The position numbers were made by a program, and so were the translations under genes. This document shows positions 12,980 to 46,836 of a stretch of 64,000 bases of DNA, in pieces. Under the pieces are notes generated by a model. That model did no database searches. It saw only the letters and a list, made by a program, of their open reading frames with translations, and was not told the DNA's origin. Each line of letters opens with the position of its first letter. The stretch's first letter is position 1. The stretch is from Patescibacteria group bacterium (GTDB taxonomy: Bacteria; Patescibacteriota; Patescibacteriia; Patescibacteriales; JBAZCA01), in NCBI GenBank assembly GCA_041671125.1, contig JBAZCA010000001.1, forward strand, positions 72,120-136,119, given 5' to 3'.

Positions 12980-13046
12980 AGCTTATAAATTTCAAATATC
13001 AAAATCAAAATGGAAAATAACAGATTAAAATTTTAAATTATTTTAT

Positions 13047-13132
13047 CGTCATCCTGAGCGTAGCGAAGGATCCCGTGAATAGAGCTATTACCACGAGATT
13101 CTTCCCCGCCGATTCGGCGGGTCAGAATGACG
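13047..13132. repeat. Structured ~85-nt palindromic repeat, copy 1 (MITE/REP-like)
   Basis: The first 52 nt (gtcatcctgagcgtagcgaaggatcccgtgaatagagctattaccacgagat) are identical to 46757-46808. The ends pair (gtcatcctgag / gtcagaatgac). Confidence 0.85.
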
Positions 13133-16754: not shown

Positions 16755-18008
16755 TTATTCCCTCCTTAACGCTTCCACCGGATCCAGGCGGGCGGCTTTC
16801 CGCGCCGGATACAGCCCAAAAGCTAATCCGAATAAAAGCGAAAAACCGATTGCCACCGGATAAGCCCTGATTGGCACGGCAAATTCCCAGGCCAGACCGA
16901 AATTGGCGGCGAGAAGCGAAATAAGATAGGAAGCGATTATGCCAAAGACAATACCGATAGCGGCTCCGGCCAGGGTGATGAGAATTGATTCAAATAAAAA
17001 CTGGGCCATGATGTCGGAGTACTTGGCGCCGATTGATTTCCGCAGGCCGATTTCCGGAGTCCGCTCCGAAACCATGACGTACATGATGTTCATTACTCCG
17101 ACACCGCCGACAACGAGCGAGATAGCGACAATGGCAAGAAGGAGAAGCGTAAGGGCGCCGGTTACGGTATCCAAAATTTTCATCATCTCAGCCATGGTAA
17201 TAACAGCGAAATCGTCGCGGTCCGGGTCGGTGATGTTGTGATTTTCACGGACGATAAGACGGATTTCATCGGCGGTTTCATCAGCCAGGTTAACGTCGTT
17301 TAATTCATGGATTATGTACATGACATGGTCAATGCCCATGATCTTTTTCTGCAAAGTCCTGATCGGGACGTAAACATAATCGTCAAAATTCATGAAAGCC
17401 ATGGCTCCGCGCTCCTCCATCACCCCGATCACCCGAAATTTCTGCTTCCTAATCCTTATTGACTGTCCAATCGGGTCGCTATCGCCGAATAATTTTTCCT
17501 TTATTTTCGCGCCGAGCACCGCCACTTCCATGAGCGAGCGATCTTCGGCGTCGGTAAAAAACCGCCCAATCCCGATTTCCGACTGGTCAATGTCTATATA
17601 AGTCGCGCTGGTTCCAAAGAGAAAGGATTTTTTCAGTTCATTGCCATAGCTTACCTGCTCCTGCCCGAGAATCCCGGCGTAGCTTCGCGCCACGTTCGGC
17701 AGTTTATCAATATCTTCCATATCCGAAATTTTCAGGGTAGTTACCTGGACGCCCTGAGCTTGAGCCATCCCTTGCTCGGTGTCCGAAGCCCGGCCGGTGG
17801 CAGTTTTTTTCGGCACCCGGAATTCGGTTTCAATAATGTTGGTGCCGAAAGCCTCAACCTGGCCGACAACCAGCCGCCGGATACCCTCGCCCGCGGAAAA
17901 AACAATTATCACCGAAGCGATGCCGATAACAATTCCCAAAATCGCCAACGCGGTCCGGCCTTTATTCGCCCTCAGAGCTTTTGAAGCGATTTTTAAGGAA
18001 GAAAACAT
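16755..18008 (-). CDS. ABC transporter permease, MacB/FtsX family (paralogue B)
   Basis: 417 aa. N-terminal TM, large periplasmic-type domain, then C-terminal FtsX-like 3-TM bundle (ERTPEIGLRKSIGAKYSDIMAQFLFES). Same length and architecture as 21840..23093. Confidence 0.85.
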   Translation of the reverse strand: MFSSLKIASKALRANKGRTALAILGIVIGIASVIIVFSAGEGIRRLVVGQVEAFGTNIIETEFRVPKKTATGRASDTEQGMAQAQGVQVTTLKISDMEDIDKLPNVARSYAGILGQEQVSYGNELKKSFLFGTSATYIDIDQSEIGIGRFFTDAEDRSLMEVAVLGAKIKEKLFGDSDPIGQSIRIRKQKFRVIGVMEERGAMAFMNFDDYVYVPIRTLQKKIMGIDHVMYIIHELNDVNLADETADEIRLIVRENHNITDPDRDDFAVITMAEMMKILDTVTGALTLLLLAIVAISLVVGGVGVMNIMYVMVSERTPEIGLRKSIGAKYSDIMAQFLFESILITLAGAAIGIVFGIIASYLISLLAANFGLAWEFAVPIRAYPVAIGFSLLFGLAFGLYPARKAARLDPVEALRRE

Positions 18009-18083: not shown

Positions 18084-19004
18084 TTACAGCGGACTTTTTA
18101 TTTTTTCTAAAACATTTCCCGCCACCTTGGTATAAATTTGCGTCGTTTCCAGTTTAGCATGACCGAGGAGTTCCTGGATATACCTGATGTCGGTACCATT
18201 TTCCAGTAAATGCGTGGCAAAGCTGTGGCGCAGGCAGTGACAGGAAGCATGTTTTTTCACGCCGGATTTTTTTAAGGCATTGGAAAAAACTTTCTGCGCT
18301 GATCGCTCGGTTAACCGGTTCTTTTTACTTCCAGTCTCCGCGCCGCCATTTTTCAATTTTTCATCCACCGTTCCGGAATTCGCGTTTAGCACCCGGCTTC
18401 TCTCGCTTTCAAAAACATAATCATCCGGATTTTTACGGCAGACGTATTTTTTCAGGACGCCAATCATCTTTTCCGACATAATAGTTATCCGGTCTTTCTT
18501 GCCTTTGCCGGCGCGGATAAAAAGCATCATCCGGTCAAAATCAAGATCTTTGACTTTCAGCTTAACCGCCTCGGACACTCTTAATCCGGAGGAGTATATC
18601 AGTCCGAGCAGGAGCTTATGCTTCACATTCTGTATTGTCCCCAGTATTTTTTTAACTTCCTCTTTACTTAAGACTTCCGGCAGTTTTTTCGGCGTTTTTG
18701 CCCGCGGAATATTCATGAAAAACCGTCGGCAAAGAATTTTTTCAAAATAGAATTTCAGGGCGCTATAGGCGGTGTTCAGGGTGGATGCTGATTTGCCGTC
18801 ATCCGCCATTTTTTCAAGATAACCGCGGATATTCTCCGAAGTTACGTTTTTCGGCCCGGAATTTGCAAATCTTAGCGCGTCCGTGATATAATACAGATAA
18901 GATTTGATGGTCTTTCCGCTGAAATTACGCAATTTCATTTCCTGCTTCAGCTTTAATATCGGATCCTGGCTTGGATAATAATTCTGTTTCATACTTTGCT
19001 TCAT
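18084..19004 (-). CDS. Tyrosine recombinase, integron-integrase-like
   Basis: Catalytic set LRVSE / HCLRHSFATHLL / LLGHAKLETTQIYTKV. IntI1-like LKVKDLDFDRMMLFIRAGKGKKDR. Extra ~20-30 aa (ERSRVLNANSGTVDEKLKNGGAETGSKKNR) relative to XerC/D. Divergent from the cassette array. Confidence 0.7.
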   Translation of the reverse strand: MKQSMKQNYYPSQDPILKLKQEMKLRNFSGKTIKSYLYYITDALRFANSGPKNVTSENIRGYLEKMADDGKSASTLNTAYSALKFYFEKILCRRFFMNIPRAKTPKKLPEVLSKEEVKKILGTIQNVKHKLLLGLIYSSGLRVSEAVKLKVKDLDFDRMMLFIRAGKGKKDRITIMSEKMIGVLKKYVCRKNPDDYVFESERSRVLNANSGTVDEKLKNGGAETGSKKNRLTERSAQKVFSNALKKSGVKKHASCHCLRHSFATHLLENGTDIRYIQELLGHAKLETTQIYTKVAGNVLEKIKSPL

Positions 19005-19082
19005 ATCCCTCTTATGATTTAAAGTATCTACCGAAATTCTAGCTTATTTTAAACAACCAGTCAACGAGTTCGGATATAAGGA

Positions 19083-19089
19083 GTTAGGC
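19083..19089 (+). other. attI-like core site GTTAGGC (GTTRRRY)
   Basis: Located 79 nt from the recombinase start, on the cassette strand. TTAGGC complements the R'' box GCCTAAC of the first attC. Confidence 0.6.
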
Positions 19090-19141
19090 AAAATTGTGCT
19101 GATTTTTATTCATTAATCCTTAGCAATTAAATTTAAAACGC

Positions 19142-19723
19142 ATGAAGAAACTAACATTAATTATTTTTTTGTCTATTTTTGCGGCTATCTTTTCGGGTTG
19201 TACACAAAAGAACACTGAAACTAAAAATCTATCAAAGACTGACCCAATACAACAAACTGATGAAAAGCAAACCGTAGGATGGGTAAATTTTACAAGCCCG
19301 CTAAACGATTATACTCTGCAACACCCAAAAAACTGGATTACTGGTTCAATGGGAAAGTTATATACTACAATTAACAGCCCTGAAAACGAACAAAATAAAA
19401 AGGAGGGTGAGCAATATATGGATGATATTACAATTACTTACTATGAGAGCGGATATAATTTTGCCGGCTATTCAACTTTTATTGATTGGTTAAATGACAC
19501 CAGCAATCCTGATCGCAATATTTTCAACGTCAATAAAATTTCATTTGCTGGAATAGACGCCTGGGATATGGTAATGACCGGAAGTAGAACAGGTTATGTT
19601 ATCATGGTTGAAAATAACGAACATCTTTACCAAATCGGATTTAACAACAGGGTGTCAAAACCAAAGTTAACTAACATAGACAAAAAAATAATTAATTCGT
19701 TTAAATTTATAAACCAACAATAA
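19142..19723 (+). CDS. Cassette 1: lipoprotein, function unknown
   Basis: Signal peptide plus lipobox IFSGC. 193 aa. Followed by attC-like site 1. Confidence 0.65.
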   Translation: MKKLTLIIFLSIFAAIFSGCTQKNTETKNLSKTDPIQQTDEKQTVGWVNFTSPLNDYTLQHPKNWITGSMGKLYTTINSPENEQNKKEGEQYMDDITITYYESGYNFAGYSTFIDWLNDTSNPDRNIFNVNKISFAGIDAWDMVMTGSRTGYVIMVENNEHLYQIGFNNRVSKPKLTNIDKKIINSFKFINQQ

Positions 19724-19806
19724 AAATCAGCACAACTCAAGGGGGCGCTGCGCTTTCATTTTGGCTTTAATTTGATAAAATAATAATGAGGCTATAATGA
19801 ACCCTC

Positions 19807-19904
19807 GCCTAACAAGTGATAACCGGAAAATGCCTCAGCTCGGCATTTTCCCAAATTTGTTTTCCCTTCGGTCAAACGAACTTCGGTTATCGCTAACGTT
19901 ATAC
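19807..19904 (+). other. attC-like site 1 (98 bp)
   Basis: R'' GCCTAAC (19807-19813) and R' GTTATAC (19898-19904). Inner arms gataaccgga (19818-27) and ttcggttatc (19882-91). Central hairpin aaaatgcc/ggcatttt. Confidence 0.65.
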
Positions 19905-19939
19905 GATATGACAAAAATCCCTTTATTAGATAGATTTGC

Positions 19940-19969
19940 TTGAAAAAAGCATGGTTCTTGAGTTATAAT
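19940..19969 (+). promoter_or_regulatory. Candidate cassette-internal promoter
   Basis: TTGAAA (19940-45), 18-nt spacer, TATAAT (19964-69). Lies 20 nt upstream of the 19990 ATG. Confidence 0.45.
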
Positions 19970-19989
19970 ACAACAATTAACTAAAATAT

Positions 19990-20694
19990 ATGTTTGAAAA
20001 ATTATTAGGAAAAACAGGCTCCGCAAAAGAAGCACAAAAAGGAAATGATTTTGGTTTTGAATCTTCAATCAAGGACACGCGACAAGAAATAGACGACGTA
20101 ATAGATCCAAAAGCAACGAAACTTATCATAGAAAGAGAAGATGGTACTGCTGAAAATAGTTCATCTAAACAACGCTTCGATGTAAAGCTTTTGAATCTTG
20201 GACGAAGTCAAATTAATAAACCTTATAGCTATTATCGTTTGTCAAATTTGTCAAGAACAGATAACATTCAAGTTTTAATGAGAACTGATCAGGGTTTAAA
20301 AAATATTCGTCTTCCTGAACAGATGTTATCAAATATTGCAAGGTTCATCAGGGAAGATTCAAAACCAAGAGAAGAAAGATTTGATTGTGCTTCTTTTGCT
20401 CATCTTGTAAACGACATACCCTATGAATTTGGTAATTATCAAGCTAAAAATTGGGATATGCGTTTATTAAGCGACGAAAATAACCTTAAACCAGGTGATA
20501 CAATTGCCATAGCAAATACAGACAATCCTAATAATTTTTCAAACGGAGACATAACTCATTTCGGAATCTATTTAGGAGATAGTCTTTATCTTTCAAAGTT
20601 TGGAAATAAAGGAAAGTTAATCGTTGCGAATCTTGAAGAAATGAAAAAAGGATTTGGTGGAGACTATTTTTTTCAAGCAAATCCAAAAAAATAA
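19990..20694 (+). CDS. Cassette 2: NlpC/P60-like (papain-fold) cysteine peptidase/amidase family protein
   Basis: Cys motif RFDCASFAHLV and His motif GDITHFGIYLGDSLYLSKFG, in the order and spacing typical of NlpC/P60. No signal peptide. Confidence 0.55.
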   Translation: MFEKLLGKTGSAKEAQKGNDFGFESSIKDTRQEIDDVIDPKATKLIIEREDGTAENSSSKQRFDVKLLNLGRSQINKPYSYYRLSNLSRTDNIQVLMRTDQGLKNIRLPEQMLSNIARFIREDSKPREERFDCASFAHLVNDIPYEFGNYQAKNWDMRLLSDENNLKPGDTIAIANTDNPNNFSNGDITHFGIYLGDSLYLSKFGNKGKLIVANLEEMKKGFGGDYFFQANPKK

Positions 20695-20714
20695 GGAAGG
20701 ATTTTTGTCACATC

Positions 20715-20859
20715 GTATAACAGCGTGTATCTGGTTCGGCAGATTTGACGCAATTAGATTCAATAGGAATGTCAAATCAGCCTCTCCCAAATTTCGCAAA
20801 AAACAATTAGATTTTCAAAGGAATTTTTGCGAAACTTCAGATACACGCGAACGTTAGAC
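20715..20859 (+). other. attC-like site 2 (145 bp)
   Basis: R'' GTATAAC (20715-21) and R' GTTAGAC (20853-59). Perfect 11-bp inner arms gcgtgtatctg (20723-33) and cagatacacgc (20838-48). Additional internal stems. Confidence 0.7.
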
Positions 20860-20989
20860 AAAATGTGCTCGCTCCGCTCGCGTAATATTTCCTCTATATT
20901 TTTGAAAAGAATTTTTGGCAATTTTGCGGGTCGATAAATCAATGTCTCATAAAAAATAATCTAAGTAAATAATTAAATAAATTATATTT

Positions 20990-21208
20990 ATGCAAAAATC
21001 AAAAATATCAGGAATTTTAATGATTTCCTCGGCTATAATTCTCATAGTCTTAATAATTGGGTATGCTGTTTTATTTTCTGTTTTTGGAATCAATTCCGGT
21101 GGATCATTTTTAATGATCACCCCCCTACTTATAATCGCTATTGCCCTAATTATAGCTCTATCTTTTCTTTTACGCGCAGGAATTAAACAAATAAAAAATA
21201 AAAAATAA
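20990..21208 (+). CDS. Cassette 3: small two-TM membrane protein
   Basis: 72 aa, two hydrophobic stretches. This is the only ORF in the cassette orientation. Confidence 0.4.
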   Translation: MQKSKISGILMISSAIILIVLIIGYAVLFSVFGINSGGSFLMITPLLIIAIALIIALSFLLRAGIKQIKNKK

Positions 21209-21275
21209 TTTAACATTGCCTCATTATGAAGAATTGCCAAAAATTTTTTATTAGTACAAAATTTTTAGTTTCATC

Positions 21276-21473
21276 GCCTAACAACGCATATCTGGCTACA
21301 GGAAATTGACTTATAGATATTAATAAGGAGTGTCAATTTCCCTCCGCCCAAATTTTCATCCCTTAGTTTTGATGAAGGTTTAGGTAGAGATAATTAAACA
21401 AAGCATTGTCTGAAACAAAAGTTTATCCCGCTAAGTCGGGATGAAAACTTCAGATGATACGTAAACGTTAGAC
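21276..21473 (+). other. attC-like site 3 (198 bp, imperfect)
   Basis: R'' GCCTAAC (21276-82) and R' GTTAGAC (21467-73). Inner arms gcatatctg / cagatgatacg pair with a bulged G. Its 3' end (21448-21497) is nearly identical to that of site 2 (20835-20883). Confidence 0.5.
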
Positions 21474-21580
21474 AAAATGTGCTCGCTCCGCTCGCGATTT
21501 TCCTGAACGCGCGCGGGTGCTCCTCGTCCGGCTCTTTCGCTCGCTGCGCCTGCCTGCCGGCAGGCAGGCTCGCACACATC

Positions 21581-21587
21581 GTCTAAC
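21581..21587 (+). other. Orphan R'' box GTCTAAC of an eroded fourth cassette
   Basis: Exact complement of GTTAGAC at 21467-73. No partner R' box before tRNA-Arg. Confidence 0.4.
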
Positions 21588-21676
21588 TCGGGATATCCGA
21601 AATGCCCTCCAGCCGGTCGCTTCCTGCCTATCGGCAGGCAGGGAACCTGCAAAATAGAGTCTAGATGAAAAAATTG

Positions 21677-21748
21677 TGTCCCCGGCAGGAATCGAACCTG
21701 CATCACAAGTTCCGGAAACTTGCGTCCTATCCATTGAACGACGGAGAC
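21677..21748 (-). tRNA. tRNA-Arg (anticodon CCG)
   Basis: GTCTCCG...CGGGGACA acceptor stem. Anticodon arm CAAGT-TTCCGGA-ACTTG. T-arm GCAGGTTCGATTCCTGC. No encoded CCA. Confidence 0.9.
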
Positions 21749-21839: not shown

Positions 21840-23093
21840 TCATTCATACCGCAAAGCTTCAATCGGGTCAAGCCTGCCGGCTTTATCCGCCGGATAAAGC
21901 CCAAAAATAAGGCCGACAAAACCGGAAACGCCGACCGCGAGCAGGATTGAAATAATTGAAATACTAAATTCCCATTCATAACCCAAAGCGCCTGCGACTA
22001 AGGCGACGAGAAAAGCAATCAGGGTTCCAAAAATTATGCCGGCAATCCCGCCGATCAGGGTTATGGCCATGGATTCAACGAGGAACTGGCTCAGGATATT
22101 CGCGCGCGTCGCTCCCACCGCTTTCCTTAAACCGATTTCGCGCGTCCGCTCCGAAACCGAAACCAGCATGATGTTCATGATGCCGATACCGCCGACTAAA
22201 AGCGAGATGGCCGCCATGGCCGCTAAAAAATATTTTAAAGCGTCGGTAACCGTTGTGATCGTGTCCAGCGCTTCGGAAGCGCTCTGCACGGTAAAATCGT
22301 CCTGGTCGCCCGAAAGGTCGGTTATGTTATGCTGTTCGCGCAAGGTTTTTTCTATATCGGCGATGACCCGGCCGATATTTTCTTCGCTATCCGCTTTGGC
22401 TCGGGCCATGGTAATATGGTTAATGCCGAGAATTAATTTTTGGGCGGTTGAAATCGGGATTAATATCTGGTCATCGTAATTCTGGAAAGCCACGGTTCCC
22501 TTTTCAGCCATCACGCCGATCACTTCAAAGCCGTGCTTTTTTATTTTTATCTTATGGCCGATCGCTTCGCTCTGGCCGAATAGATCCTCTTTTACTTTGG
22601 ATCCCAAAACCGCGACCCGGGCAAGACTCCTTTCTTCGTCTTCAGTAAAAAACCGCCCTTCTTCAACATTACTGGATTCAATTTCCGTGTAACTCGCTGT
22701 TGTTCCGTTCAGGTTCGTATCCAGCTCGTTATTTTCCCAGACAACGGTTTCCACGCCTTTGACGTAAGCGGCCGCGTTAAGAAGATTGGGGACGTTATTT
22801 TTTTTCTTTAGCGCCTCTATATCGTCGTAAGTAAGGGTAGTAATTACTATTCCCATAACCGAGGCCGGCGGGCCTTTGTCGTCCGACTTCCCCGGCAGGA
22901 TGCCGATCAAGTCGCTCCCGATGCCTTTAATCTGCGCGAGAATCAGGCTCTGCGCTCCGGCGCCGACCGCCATGATAATAATTACCGCCGCCACGCCGAT
23001 TATAATCCCGAGCATGGTCAAAAAGCTCCTTGTCTTATTAGCAAGGAGCGCGCGGAATGAATTTTTAAAGCTTTGGGTAAAAAAAGTAAGCAT
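21840..23093 (-). CDS. ABC transporter permease, MacB/FtsX family (paralogue A)
   Basis: 417 aa with the same architecture as 16755..18008 (ERTREIGLRKAVGATRANILSQFLVES). Confidence 0.85.
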   Translation of the reverse strand: MLTFFTQSFKNSFRALLANKTRSFLTMLGIIIGVAAVIIIMAVGAGAQSLILAQIKGIGSDLIGILPGKSDDKGPPASVMGIVITTLTYDDIEALKKKNNVPNLLNAAAYVKGVETVVWENNELDTNLNGTTASYTEIESSNVEEGRFFTEDEERSLARVAVLGSKVKEDLFGQSEAIGHKIKIKKHGFEVIGVMAEKGTVAFQNYDDQILIPISTAQKLILGINHITMARAKADSEENIGRVIADIEKTLREQHNITDLSGDQDDFTVQSASEALDTITTVTDALKYFLAAMAAISLLVGGIGIMNIMLVSVSERTREIGLRKAVGATRANILSQFLVESMAITLIGGIAGIIFGTLIAFLVALVAGALGYEWEFSISIISILLAVGVSGFVGLIFGLYPADKAGRLDPIEALRYE

Positions 23094-23096
23094 TTT

Positions 23097-23816
23097 TTAT
23101 TTCAGCATCTCTCCGTCTTTCGCTATCCTTCTCTTTGCCACGAGGTAATCATCAACAATTCTTCCGTCCATGATTTTAATAATCCGTTTCGCGTGCTCCG
23201 AGGTGTAGGTTTCATGGGTGACCATGACAATCGTATTGCCTTCGTTATTTAAGTGCTGGAGGATTTCCATGATCTGGGTTCCGGATTTTGAATCAAGGTT
23301 GCCGGTCGGCTCGTCGGCGAAGATTATTGACGGCTCGTTGACGAGCGCCCGGGCGATCGCCACCCTTTGCTTTTCGCCGCCCGAAATCTGGTTGGTAAAA
23401 TAGGTGAGCCGGTGTTCCAACCCGACGTTTTTTAAAATCGCTCCGGCCCGGCTGTCCATGCTGGATTTATCATTAGAATAAGCAAGCGGCAATTTTACGT
23501 TTTCCAGAACAGAGGTTCTCGGGAGAAGGTTAAAGGCCTGAAAAACAAAGCCGATTTTTTCGTTACGCATCTTCGCCAGTTCGTTATCGGATAATTTAGT
23601 GACGTCCACGCCCTCAAATTCATACAGGCCGGAAGAGGCGCGGTCTAAAAGCCCGAGGATATGCATTAGCGTTGATTTTCCCGAACCGGACGGACCCATG
23701 ATTGAAACAAACTCGCCTTTCTCTATTTTAAAAGTTATCCCGCGCAGAACGCGGGTTTCAATATCTCCTGATAAATAAACTTTTTGGAGGTTTTCCACGT
23801 TAATTAGAATGGACAT
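23097..23816 (-). CDS. ABC transporter ATP-binding protein (MacB/LolD type)
   Basis: Walker [10 protein letters not shown], signature [15 protein letters not shown], Walker [13 protein letters not shown]. Confidence 0.93.
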
Positions 23817-23924
23817 GATATAAAATTTTTAATTTTGTAATTTTTAATTTTTAAACAATTTCAAATTTTTCAATGACTTAATTTCCAAACATTTAATCAT
23901 TGAATAATTAATACATTAAAAATT

Positions 23925-25868
23925 TTATTTTATTTCTTTCACGAAAGTCACAACTTCATCCCCTTCTTTAACTCCGGAAATAACTTCCACCATGCCTTCG
24001 TCGCCTTTTAAGCCGATTTCCACCGGAATTTCTTTTAATTCTTCGTTCCGGAGGACGCGGACAAACTTGCCAAGGCCGTTTTTATCAACAACCGCCCTTT
24101 GTGGCATAATTAATACATCGTCTTTTTTAGCGGCAAAAATGTCAATATTGGCGGTCATGCCGGCTTTTATTGCCGCGAGGCTCTCGGGGATTAACGCTTC
24201 ATTTTTCGCGCCTTCCGGCAATATGCTCGCCTTAACTTTGTAATAAACCACGTCCTGGATTATGGTTGGAGCCGTGTCAATAAAATAAACCCGACCGATA
24301 AACTTCTTCTCGGTCCCAAAGGCGTCAAAAGTAATTTCACACTCGTTTCCTAGGCTGATTTTTGAAACGTCAATTTCCGAGATATCCACCCGGGCGTTAA
24401 AATCATTGTCGCCGACAATGATTACAGCCGGAGAATTGGCCGTAACGGTTTCACCGATGTCAAAATTAATCCTGGTTATTGTCCCGGCTATCGGCGCCTT
24501 AATAATACTGTCTTCAATCTGTCTCTCTATCGCCTCCAGTCCGGCTTGAGCCTGGGTTAGATTCGCTTCGGCCGCCCGGATGTCATAATCGTTTGATCCG
24601 GAAAGGATTTTATCAAGGCTCGCCTTAGCCGAATCAAGCGATTTTTCCGCCGCGTTTACTTTTGATTCGCCTGCTGTTATCTCTCGTTCGCCGGAAGCCT
24701 TCGCGCTTAGAACGCTGTTTTTCGCTGACTGGAGGGCGTTATCAAAACTAGCCCGGGAAAGATTCAGGTTTTCTTCGGCTTCCCGGACTTTAAGGTCATA
24801 ATTGGAAATTGCCGTATCAAGGCTTTGTTCCGCGGCATCCAGGCTCTGAATACCGGCGCTAATAATCCCGATTTGGGCGGAGATGGAAATTTTGTAAGCG
24901 TCTAACTCAGCCTGGGTGAAAGACGAAGAAGTAAGGCTCTTTTCCAGCCCTTTAAAGCAGTTTTCCAGCGTGTCTAAGGAAGAATTGAGAAGATCCTGCG
25001 CGCCGCCAGCCGCCTTTTTTACTTTATCATCAGACCGGTCAGCCCGGGCCGCGGCAACCGACGCTTCAACTCCGGGAATTTTTCCGGAAGCTGACGCAGC
25101 GCCGTTTTTCGTGTTGGTTGAAAATTGCGGATCCCTGACGCTAAACAGCGTATCAGCGTCATCATCCTCCAGTACCGCGTTAACTTTATCCAAAGCCGTC
25201 CGGCTATCTAAAATAGCGTCATCCGCTGTTGTTAAGGCGTTGGTTTTCGCCGTTTCCAGGGACGCGAGATAAGTCGTTTTTGCGGTTTTTAGCGCCGCTT
25301 CGGCCTGAGTAATCGCCTGCTCGTAAGTAGTTATGTTTTCCGACGCGGCGCTTTCAAGATCGCTTAAATTCTTTCGCGCCTGCCGTTCGTTTTCAACGAC
25401 TGTATTTTTTACTTTAACCAATTCGGCGGAAGCCGCGGAAAAAGCCGCTTCGGCCTGCGCGACGTTGGCCTGCGCGACTTTAATTTCCTCACCGCTCGCG
25501 CCGCTCAAAAGCTTCTGCAGATTGGCGCTCGCGGCCGTCACTCCGGCCGACGCTTCTTTTTCTTTTATGGTGAGCGCACCATAATCCAGCTCGGCGATCG
25601 CTGAGCTGGCTTCAGCCCTTTCCCCTTCTTTAAAATAAATTTTTTCCAGCCGTCCGGAAAGAGGAAAAGCAAGGTTAAGGTCGTCGCTCGCTTCAACGAT
25701 CCCGGTTTCCGAAACCGTCTGTTTTATGGTTCCTTTTTCAACTTTAGCCAAAGTGTATTCGGGCTGTTTTTCCTTATTAAAAAATATGAACCAGCCCGCG
25801 ATAAAAACCGCGGGTATAATAATTAGGAGCCATTTTTTACTGAGTAAAATTCTAAATATTTTCTTCAT
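23925..25868 (-). CDS. HlyD/MacA-type periplasmic adaptor with very long coiled-coil hairpin
   Basis: N-terminal TM. Lipoyl-like halves (GIVEASDDLNLAFPLSGRLEKIYFKEG ... IKAPIAGTITRINFDIGE). About 350 aa of Ala/Glu/Ser-rich coiled coil. Confidence 0.8.
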   Translation of the reverse strand: MKKIFRILLSKKWLLIIIPAVFIAGWFIFFNKEKQPEYTLAKVEKGTIKQTVSETGIVEASDDLNLAFPLSGRLEKIYFKEGERAEASSAIAELDYGALTIKEKEASAGVTAASANLQKLLSGASGEEIKVAQANVAQAEAAFSAASAELVKVKNTVVENERQARKNLSDLESAASENITTYEQAITQAEAALKTAKTTYLASLETAKTNALTTADDAILDSRTALDKVNAVLEDDDADTLFSVRDPQFSTNTKNGAASASGKIPGVEASVAAARADRSDDKVKKAAGGAQDLLNSSLDTLENCFKGLEKSLTSSSFTQAELDAYKISISAQIGIISAGIQSLDAAEQSLDTAISNYDLKVREAEENLNLSRASFDNALQSAKNSVLSAKASGEREITAGESKVNAAEKSLDSAKASLDKILSGSNDYDIRAAEANLTQAQAGLEAIERQIEDSIIKAPIAGTITRINFDIGETVTANSPAVIIVGDNDFNARVDISEIDVSKISLGNECEITFDAFGTEKKFIGRVYFIDTAPTIIQDVVYYKVKASILPEGAKNEALIPESLAAIKAGMTANIDIFAAKKDDVLIMPQRAVVDKNGLGKFVRVLRNEELKEIPVEIGLKGDEGMVEVISGVKEGDEVVTFVKEIK

Positions 25869-46735: not shown

Positions 46736-46756
46736 GAATTAAAAAACTGTTTTTTT

Positions 46757-46836
46757 GTCATCCTGAGCGTAGCGAAGGATCCCGTGAATAGAGCTATTAC
46801 CACGAGATCCTTCGGCCTAATCGGCCTCAGGATGAC
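46757..46836. repeat. Structured ~80-nt palindromic repeat, copy 2
   Basis: Outer stem gtcatcctgag / ctcaggatgac (11 bp). Inner stem cgaaggatc / gatccttcg (9 bp). 5' 52 nt are identical to copy 1. Confidence 0.85.

Follow-up and report, generated by a model that had tools for sequence, protein, structure and literature searches.

A putative integron-like gene-cassette array on a Xer/dif module in a Patescibacteria genome

The window analyzed in this work, by which we mean the whole stretch of 64,000 nt at positions 72,120-136,119 (forward strand) of contig JBAZCA010000001.1 from a Patescibacteria group bacterium (GCA_041671125.1), contains a tyrosine recombinase gene, a dif-like site that diverges from it, and three open reading frames (ORFs), each followed by an imperfect palindrome. 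The same layout, with a Xer-type gene, a dif-type site and hairpin-ended cassettes, recurs in dozens of related genomes. With a probability of about three in four, we read the locus as a gene-cassette array of integron-like design in which a Xer/dif module takes the place of IntI/attI. Each cassette consists of one ORF with an imperfect palindrome of 100-200 nt behind it. The features of the locus, in window coordinates, are the following.

18084-19004 (-): gene for a XerA-type tyrosine recombinase of 306 aa, assigned by ORF, motifs, Pfam and NCBIfam
19036-19064 (-): predicted sigma-70-like promoter of the recombinase gene, TTGACT-17-TAGAAT, 10/12 in a consensus scan
19067-19094 (+): dif-like 28-bp core (attI-like), left arm AGTTCGGATAT, centre AAGGAG, right arm TTAGGCAAAAT
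19084-19898 (+): cassette 1, ORF 19142-19723 and hairpin site 1
19802-19909: hairpin site 1, R'' box GCCTAAC at 19807-19813, GTT at 19898-19900
19899-20853 (+): cassette 2, ORF 19990-20694 and hairpin site 2
20710-20865: hairpin site 2, R'' box GTATAAC at 20715-20721, GTT at 20853-20855
20854-21467 (+): cassette 3, ORF 20990-21208 and hairpin site 3
21271-21479: hairpin site 3, R'' box GCCTAAC at 21276-21282, GTT at 21467-21469
21468-21650 (+): terminal GC-rich unit without an ORF, which ends the array
21576-21603: orphan inverted dif-like site, ACATCGTCTAA-CTCGGG-ATATCCGAAAT, inside the terminal unit and without a partner arm

The recombinase matched PF00589 (E 4.9e-42) and PF13495, and the catalytic motifs that a preliminary description of this DNA had quoted for it are present. 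It passed the cut-off of the XerA equivalog NF040815 (XerA_Arch; 224.4 bits, cut-off 220) and failed that of the integron-integrase model TIGR02249 (230.8 bits, cut-off 265), in which only profile positions 3-179 and the C-terminus were matched. Five typical relatives (277-282 aa) scored 227-247 bits over positions 4-261 of the 263 in NF040815, and 221-228 bits with TIGR02249, where the best match stopped near position 181 of 315; scores with NF011946 were 136-165 bits, for a cut-off of 435. In a comparison with solved structures, the scores of P. abyssi XerA and V. cholerae IntI4 were alike, and segment 183-237 of IntI4 stayed unaligned. In a direct alignment with IntI1 (the Klebsiella plasmid copy as reference), about 43 aa of IntI1, including ALERKYP...WFWVF and the IntI-specific domain, found no counterpart in the recombinase family. 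The preliminary description had also noticed an extra segment roughly where integron integrases carry their additional domain. An insert of about 25 aa does exist (at approximately residues 203-228), but it bears no similarity to the extra segment of IntI1 and is missing in 12 of 14 close homologues; P0002 has a shorter, different insert at the same position. As judged from these profiles and alignments, the recombinase is of the Xer class (XerA-type), not an IntI. The family is large, with more than 7,700 database proteins at E<=1e-20, and those named by taxon among the matches listed belong to Patescibacteria (Moranbacteria, Falkowbacteria, Parcubacteria). XerA-class recombinases that are 41-43% identical to that of the window are also encoded by plasmids of Clostridium estertheticum and C. 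tagluense (NZ_CP077608, NZ_CP077611, NZ_CP077623 and others), under the annotation 'site-specific tyrosine recombinase/integron integrase'.

The GTTAGGC core noticed in the preliminary description lies, as claimed there, at 19083-19089, divergent from the recombinase gene and 79 nt from its start codon. It overlaps a 28-bp site whose left and right 11-bp arms are mutual inverted repeats, in which the crossover would fall between G19083 and T19084. We retrieved 80 loci encoding relatives of the recombinase and inspected the DNA upstream of each gene; nearly all of the Patescibacteria loci have the same site 55-105 nt ahead of the start codon, and conservation of this site before homologous genes extends to about 50 Patescibacteria genomes. 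The conserved 28-mer was found upstream of 37 of 61 homologous genes, with a hand-built pattern for which an 11-6-11 register was assumed and which gave 39 matches, two of them spurious; its consensus is AGTTCGCATAT-AACTWG-TTnnnnGAAAT. The only match of an nhmmer model of the dif-like site to the window was at 19063-19095 (E 1.4e-06). The arms of the window site agree at 15 of 22 positions with those of E. coli dif, GGTGCGCATAA-TGTATA-TTATGTTAAAT (PMC3025954); in several loci the right arm is TTATGTGAAAT, with 10 of 11 positions as in E. coli dif. Sequence conservation halts just after GTT, returns for GAAAT and then stops. Contig breaks are frequent at this point: 23 of 60 contigs break off no more than 500 nt away on the dif side, and 2 of 60 do so on the opposite side of the gene. 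The -35 box of the predicted promoter lies 2 nt from the dif-like site, and a flank with RTCAAC, the reverse complement of this box, is kept across loci. A site immediately upstream of a single-Xer gene is known from xerS/difSL (PMC1914069). Among the DPANN archaeal and distant bacterial relatives of the recombinase (L061-L082), arm or dif matches were obtained only in L064, L065 and L072, which are of the Patescibacteria type.

The three palindromes that had been placed at 19807-19904, 20715-20859 and 21276-21473 are there, but two of their boxes, GTTATAC and GTATAAC, are off the strict GTTRRRY/RYYYAAC consensus. Because these two of the six boxes break the consensus and the arm pairing of site 3 is below threshold, a strict RYYYAAC/GTTRRRY scan with arm complementarity returned no sites in the window; it was replaced by relaxed patterns and then by nhmmer models of each arm and of the dif-like site. 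The arm models matched the window only inside 19802-21601, and the motifs AACGTTAKAC and TCGYMTAAC are confined to 19805-21587. Folding of the bottom strands, proposed in the preliminary description as a check, yielded strong structures for sites 1-3, with -20.7, -31.3 and -29.2 kcal/mol and z-scores of -5.05, -6.99 and -4.51 (-4.4 to -7.0 overall), and no shuffled sequence folded as well.

The hairpins of the window belong to a family that lies on one side of the recombinase gene. In a crude scan, the 199 kb that lie upstream of recombinase genes contained 25 sites and the 380 kb of downstream DNA contained none, and arm matches in 58 other loci numbered 133 upstream in the same orientation, one in the opposite orientation and none downstream. 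Of the 31 loci for which the upstream DNA spans 1.5 kb or more, 28 have at least one arm; in one locus, a stretch of 8 kb contains 7 sites. Alignment of 26 sites gave the consensus ACATC-nnnn-AAC-A-nnn-ATATCYGG for the first arm (the '' arm) and AACTTCRGATAT-nnn-(T/G)A(A/T)AC-GTT-nnnn-GAAAT for the second (the ' arm); AAC and GTT are invariant in 26/26, and the adjoining four bases are free (GTAC, ATCG, CTGC, AGCT). The dif-proximal junction is always GAAAT, as in the ' arms, and never GATGT, as in the '' arms. Neighbouring arms that had been detected independently form a perfect 11-bp stem in 32 of 71 pairs, compared with 0.9% for random partners. In the alignment the L helix is 92.9% paired, and at the four of its positions that our choice of sites did not impose we counted 10, 11, 5 and 8 compensatory double changes and no single change. 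Within these pairs the ' arm is longer by 3 nt in 47/71 and by 2 nt in 18/71. The ' arm is thus longer by 2-3 nt in 65/71, and the extra bases lie between the boxes and not in the L box of the '' arm. When set in register, the '' strand, ACATCnnnnAA-CA(A/C)nnn-ATATCTGGnTC, equals the bottom strand of the dif-like site with its 11-6-11 spacing, and the centre of the ' strand measures 9 nt. On folding, the site thus mimics dif, with an internal loop of 1x4 between the R box (TTnnnnGAAAT against ACATCnnnnAA) and the L box, which is 11 bp long (CAGATATnnn).

A further regularity concerns the ends of the units. According to the preliminary description, the bases that open each unit complement the downstream R'' box of that same unit; this holds in the window, with 0, 0, 1 and 0 mismatches across the four units, and extends to related arrays. 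In 56 related loci, the four bases after GTT were fully complementary to the next downstream '' box in 47/77 cases (binomial P ~3e-28), compared with 9.7% for random pairs and 10/72 for the two boxes of one hairpin. Between dif and the first '' box the proportion was 20/27, with 10 different tetranucleotides. In cassette 2 the end complementarity reaches 23 nt, well past the 7-nt box, through an inverted repeat (I4) that joins 19898-19920 with 20699-20721.

The permuted boundaries had been ascribed to G|TT crossover, and comparison between loci agrees with this origin. The recombinase genes of L039 and L064 are 93% identical, and the segment with gene start, promoter and dif-like site is identical at 207/209 positions up to ...AACTAGTTA; beyond GTTA the two loci are unrelated, and GAAAT alone is common after it. 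The segments shared by L024/L050 and by L007/L046 also stop exactly at GTT. Cassette 3 has copies in two foreign arrays, namely L072, where 20884-21299 of the window is 97.1% identical and the recombinase only 54% identical, and L100, a JGI metagenome contig, where 20953-21356 of the window is 89% identical. Its neighbours differ among the arrays of the window, L072 and L100, and we conclude that a cassette has been shared horizontally between arrays. The 98-nt hairpin of site 1 likewise has a 95% identical copy in L013 and another copy in L025, each behind a different ORF.

The best reading of this anatomy is an array mechanistically close to CTXphi-type hairpin integration. A circular single-stranded cassette would fold its palindrome into a dif mimic, and the recombinase, as the probable catalyst, would exchange a single strand of the folded palindrome with the dif-like site, the crossover being at AA|C of the bottom strand, equivalent to G|TT on the top strand. 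Replication would then resolve the junction, and the new cassette would land beside a regenerated dif, pushing older cassettes distally. The dif-like site may also serve in the resolution of chromosome dimers. This model, built from anatomy and comparison, would account for GAAAT at the dif-proximal junction, the matching unit ends, the covariation of the L box and the one-sided, co-oriented arrays. The same route is established at dif for CTXphi (PMC3442271) and, with IntI, for integron cassettes (PMC5027507).

Several observations weigh against this interpretation. The three copies of cassette 3 have the ORF and the '' arm in common but not the loop and the ' arm, and therefore exchanges also occur in or near the '' arm. 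The 5' homology of these copies begins about 30 nt (L072) to about 100 nt (L100) after G|TT, and the cassette 3 site of L072 has a non-complementary nnn, as in a chimera. With cassette 3 boundaries off G|TT, other crossover points or secondary recombination must exist. Thirteen ''-to-' pairs have loops of 256-764 nt, unlike compact attC sites; the hairpin loop seems to have received an insertion of DNA, perhaps of an ORF. These long-loop pairs have matching L boxes (examples, counted upstream from the recombinase start codon, are L012 114-704, L050 719-1536 and L045 784-1278), and the other pairs are 26-151 nt apart. The loops themselves carry conserved motifs, such as CCCAAATTT, so that some of this conservation may have a different function; termination of transcription and the binding of a host factor are possible additional roles of the hairpins. 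A motif of the CCCAAATTT type is present in every hairpin of the window (19851-19859, approximately 20783-20793 and approximately 21352-21362; columns 92-103 of alignment A1). It stands just after an internal stem-loop, TAAGGA is found in many loops, and the stem-loop plus motif of site 1 (19825-19851) scores as terminator-like. Finally, the boundary polymorphism expected among relatives was found for L039/L064 and for cassette 3 in foreign arrays, but not for this exact species: the only other contigs with an identical recombinase were L001, which is identical to the window, and L002, which has the same first cassette ORF, and a metagenome scan with the dif flank of this species gave no matches.

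Of the 63 cassette bodies in the related arrays, 56 have a longest ORF that reads away from the recombinase gene; the median ORF coverage is 0.72. Pfam searches on 39 cassette ORFs from these arrays returned metabolic and accessory families plus one insertion sequence (IS) transposase; the cargo includes methyltransferases, NUDIX, cupin, isochorismatase, SDR, GNAT, NlpC/P60, DKNYY, PsbP-like and PQ-loop families. The transposase, which is IS-type with an rve integrase core domain, occupies a cassette of L051 whose start lies 2575 nt upstream of the recombinase start codon; insertion sequences can thus enter arrays as well. Viral contigs scanned with the ' arm pattern yielded 17 stretches, none of them with a recombinase, a dif-like site or a '' arm; two strong arm matches sit inside one phage ORF, and the viral matches are due to chance. 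The same Patescibacteria-type recombinase, dif-like site and hairpins appear in records labeled 'uncultured Gammaproteobacteria' or 'Bdellovibrionales' (L016, L021, L023, L027, L037, L039-L041, L044, L046, L048, L054 and L072), bin labels that look unreliable.

With respect to the cassettes of the window, the ORF of cassette 1 encodes a lipoprotein-like product of 193 aa with a PsbP_2 match, and that of cassette 2 a product of 234 aa with a weak NlpC/P60 match; cassette 2 also contains a promoter-like site at 19940-19969. The 72-aa product of cassette 3 is hydrophobic, has no Pfam match and is probably a membrane protein. The orphan site of the terminal unit is paired with the dif-like site by the inverted repeat I17, and its match to the '' arm model is weak. 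The terminal unit itself is about 72% identical to elements located directly beside dif in L026, L032 and L034. Relatives of this unit adjoin dif in those three loci and in L037, L044 and L051, and many contigs break inside them; in L037 and L044 the terminal-type unit is complete, with a degenerate ' arm. Internal hairpins of the form GCCTGCC..GGCAGGC are present in the unit of the window. A 38-nt direct repeat (D2; 20845-20882 and 21459-21496, 95% identical) makes the first 30 nt of cassette 3 equal to the start of the terminal unit; together with the differing 5' ends of the L072 and L100 copies of cassette 3, it points to a second kind of exchange near cassette starts.

The locus is carried by a chromosomal-type contig (94-kb to 276-kb), along with ribosomal protein, MreB and tRNA genes. 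The GC content of 19000-21400 is 30-35%, and that of both flanks roughly 48-52%. GC skew has the same sign on either side of the locus within the window (-0.095 and -0.08), and the dif-like site is therefore not at a skew switch within these 64 kb; at 15 other loci, where arrays fill the flanks, the sign was the same in 10 and flipped in 5. No second copy (paralogue) of the recombinase was found within the window, and an Rfam scan of the window with E up to 10 returned tRNA and chance matches only. One of the tRNA genes abuts the array region.

21676-21748 (-): tRNA-Arg

The preliminary description had named this tRNA as a neighbour, which turned out to be incidental: tRNA genes are absent from most related arrays and are of different kinds where present. 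The block of recombinase gene, array and tRNA is flanked by MacB/FtsX-type permease paralogues, 46% identical to each other, at 16755-18008 (-) and 21840-25868 (-), with an ABC ATPase gene and a HlyD-like gene beyond the second, all of them on the minus strand. An efflux operon split by the block is a plausible explanation; homologues of MacB, HlyD or DUF4012 were found near the locus in none of 58 other loci, and no intact version of the operon was found. A 70-nt direct repeat, 93% identical, lies at approximately 13035-13104 and 46744-46813, some 34 kb apart, and surfaced as a secondary BLAST match of L001 to the window.

Among the alternatives, we consider it unlikely that the site is the housekeeping dif of the chromosome and that the array, rather than a dedicated platform, is a graveyard of mobile elements that exploit Xer (IMEX), of the kind at Vibrio cholerae dif1. 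The mechanism would be the one proposed above, and the difference lies mainly in whether the cassettes are autonomous elements. The Xer class of the recombinase and the dif-like nature of the site are in its favor, as is the precedent of xerS/difSL for a dif beside its own recombinase gene (PMC1914069). CTXphi itself integrates by dif-mimic hairpins with an aberrant central region (PMC3025954, PMC3442271), and the likeness extends further: in both cases Xer and dif are used, an incoming folded single strand mimics dif, one strand exchange followed by replication is expected, and elements stack at dif. However, the units here are single accessory genes without phage or replication genes, the arrays reach at least 7 units, and one hairpin family serves dozens of cassettes across many taxa. 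No carrier appeared among the viral contigs scanned, and the skew does not switch at the site in the window (-0.095 / -0.08). Moreover, in contrast to CTXphi-type elements, the recombinase gene adjoins the site and is a single Xer rather than XerC/XerD. In this last respect the locus is closer to xerS/difSL and archaeal XerA/dif, which also combine one Xer with a site of two imperfect inverted arms, placed immediately upstream of the gene in xerS/difSL (PMC1914069). Unlike the present locus, those systems have no described cassette arrays or hairpin sites, and the GC skew of the window does not switch at the locus.

Still less probable is a duplex module or inversion system with inverted Xer sites and no hairpin intermediate, such as the pdif modules of Acinetobacter or Xer1/vpma of Mycoplasma. 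Site orientation does alternate along the array (dif, '' inverted, ' direct), so that genes are bracketed by inverted Xer-type sites as in pdif modules, and the '' arm is a proper 11-6-11 site on duplex DNA. Some homology boundaries lie in the '' arm, and the product of ORF1 is lipoprotein-like. Nevertheless, frequent inversion would scramble an orientation that is nearly uniform (133 matches versus 1, with 56/63 ORFs forward), and the ' sites, with their 9-nt centre, would be poor duplex substrates. The centres of the dif and '' sites have only 1-3 nt in common, and the matching end tetranucleotides and the L-box covariation fit intramolecular pairing, not duplex recombination. The pdif modules also differ in being plasmid-borne, with proposed duplex movement between canonical XerC/D sites and no adjacent recombinase gene, whereas in the present array the centre of every second site is 9 nt long and such a site forms a hairpin with its neighbour.

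A true integron, with an IntI-family integrase and attI/attC sites made divergent by the candidate-phylum host, was in essence what the preliminary description had proposed, and we assign it a very slight chance. What stands of that claim is the integron pattern itself: a tyrosine recombinase gene divergent from an adjacent insertion site, single co-oriented ORFs ending in imperfect palindromes of conserved structure, G|TT crossover with permuted boundaries, and a diverse accessory cargo that includes GNAT, NUDIX, cupin, isochorismatase and methyltransferase families. The boxes have an invariant AAC and GTT, the ' arm ends in AAACGTTAGAC, which is similar to the R' end of class 1 attC sites, and the N-terminal 180 residues of the recombinase score well on TIGR02249. 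The parts themselves do not agree. The TIGR02249 scores of 221-231 bits are below the cut-off of 265, with the middle of the profile unmatched, and the XerA equivalog was passed at full length. The enzyme lacks the IntI domain, as some 43 aa of IntI1 have no counterpart, and the insertion site has a symmetric dif-like core in 11-6-11 register. The tetranucleotide of the boxes varies freely and is not limited to RRRY. The asymmetry of the hairpin also differs, with a 1x4 internal loop whose extra bases are located on the ' arm and between the boxes, whereas in the attC of aac(6')-Ib, the one that we inspected, the L box of the '' arm contains the extra base. The conserved loop motifs and the promoter-like site owned by at least one cassette are further departures from integrons.

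Finally, a tRNA-Arg island left by a phage-type integrase, or palindromes that are chance terminators or repetitive extragenic palindrome (REP)-like repeats, can be excluded, despite the tRNA-Arg at 21676-21748 (-) abutting a region low in GC and one hairpin scoring as terminator-like, since the repeat scan lists the tRNA 3' end nowhere at the recombinase end of the region and its only tRNA-like repeat, D14, lies beside the tRNA itself, tRNA genes are missing or inconsistent in related arrays, and the arm motifs, which are homologous to the dif-like site itself, are restricted to the array in these 64 kb and, across 58 loci, to the dif side of the gene.

The array of the window, read as an integron-like system on a Xer/dif module, is therefore rated as integron-like in layout and logic, with parts that resemble Xer/dif and CTXphi. 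Integron integrases are thought to derive from Xer-like recombinases by gain of a domain for recombining folded single strands (PMC4792948, PMC7790495), and the IntIs of archaeal integrons do carry the IntI domain (PMC9668308). For Patescibacteria or the candidate phyla radiation (CPR), searches of open-access full text and bioRxiv turned up reports neither of integrons nor of cassettes linked to Xer/dif. For the broader proposal, that this is an undescribed form of cassette capture, widespread in Patescibacteria, with XerA and an adjacent dif-type site in place of IntI/attI and dif-mimic hairpins in place of attC, and a living relative or analogue of the proposed step from Xer/dif to integrons in which single-strand hairpins recombine in the absence of the I2 domain, we regard the odds as even.

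If the proposal is true, the transition from Xer to integron becomes testable, in the form of the question whether a plain Xer-class enzyme can run cassette capture. It would also explain a recurrent break in the assembly of metagenome-assembled genomes (MAGs), as 23/60 contigs end at the dif-like site. It further suggests that such systems would be overlooked by surveys that recognize integrons from the IntI domain. Patescibacteria are a huge uncultured radiation with tiny genomes, and for them these arrays would represent a major, so far unlisted route of gene exchange.

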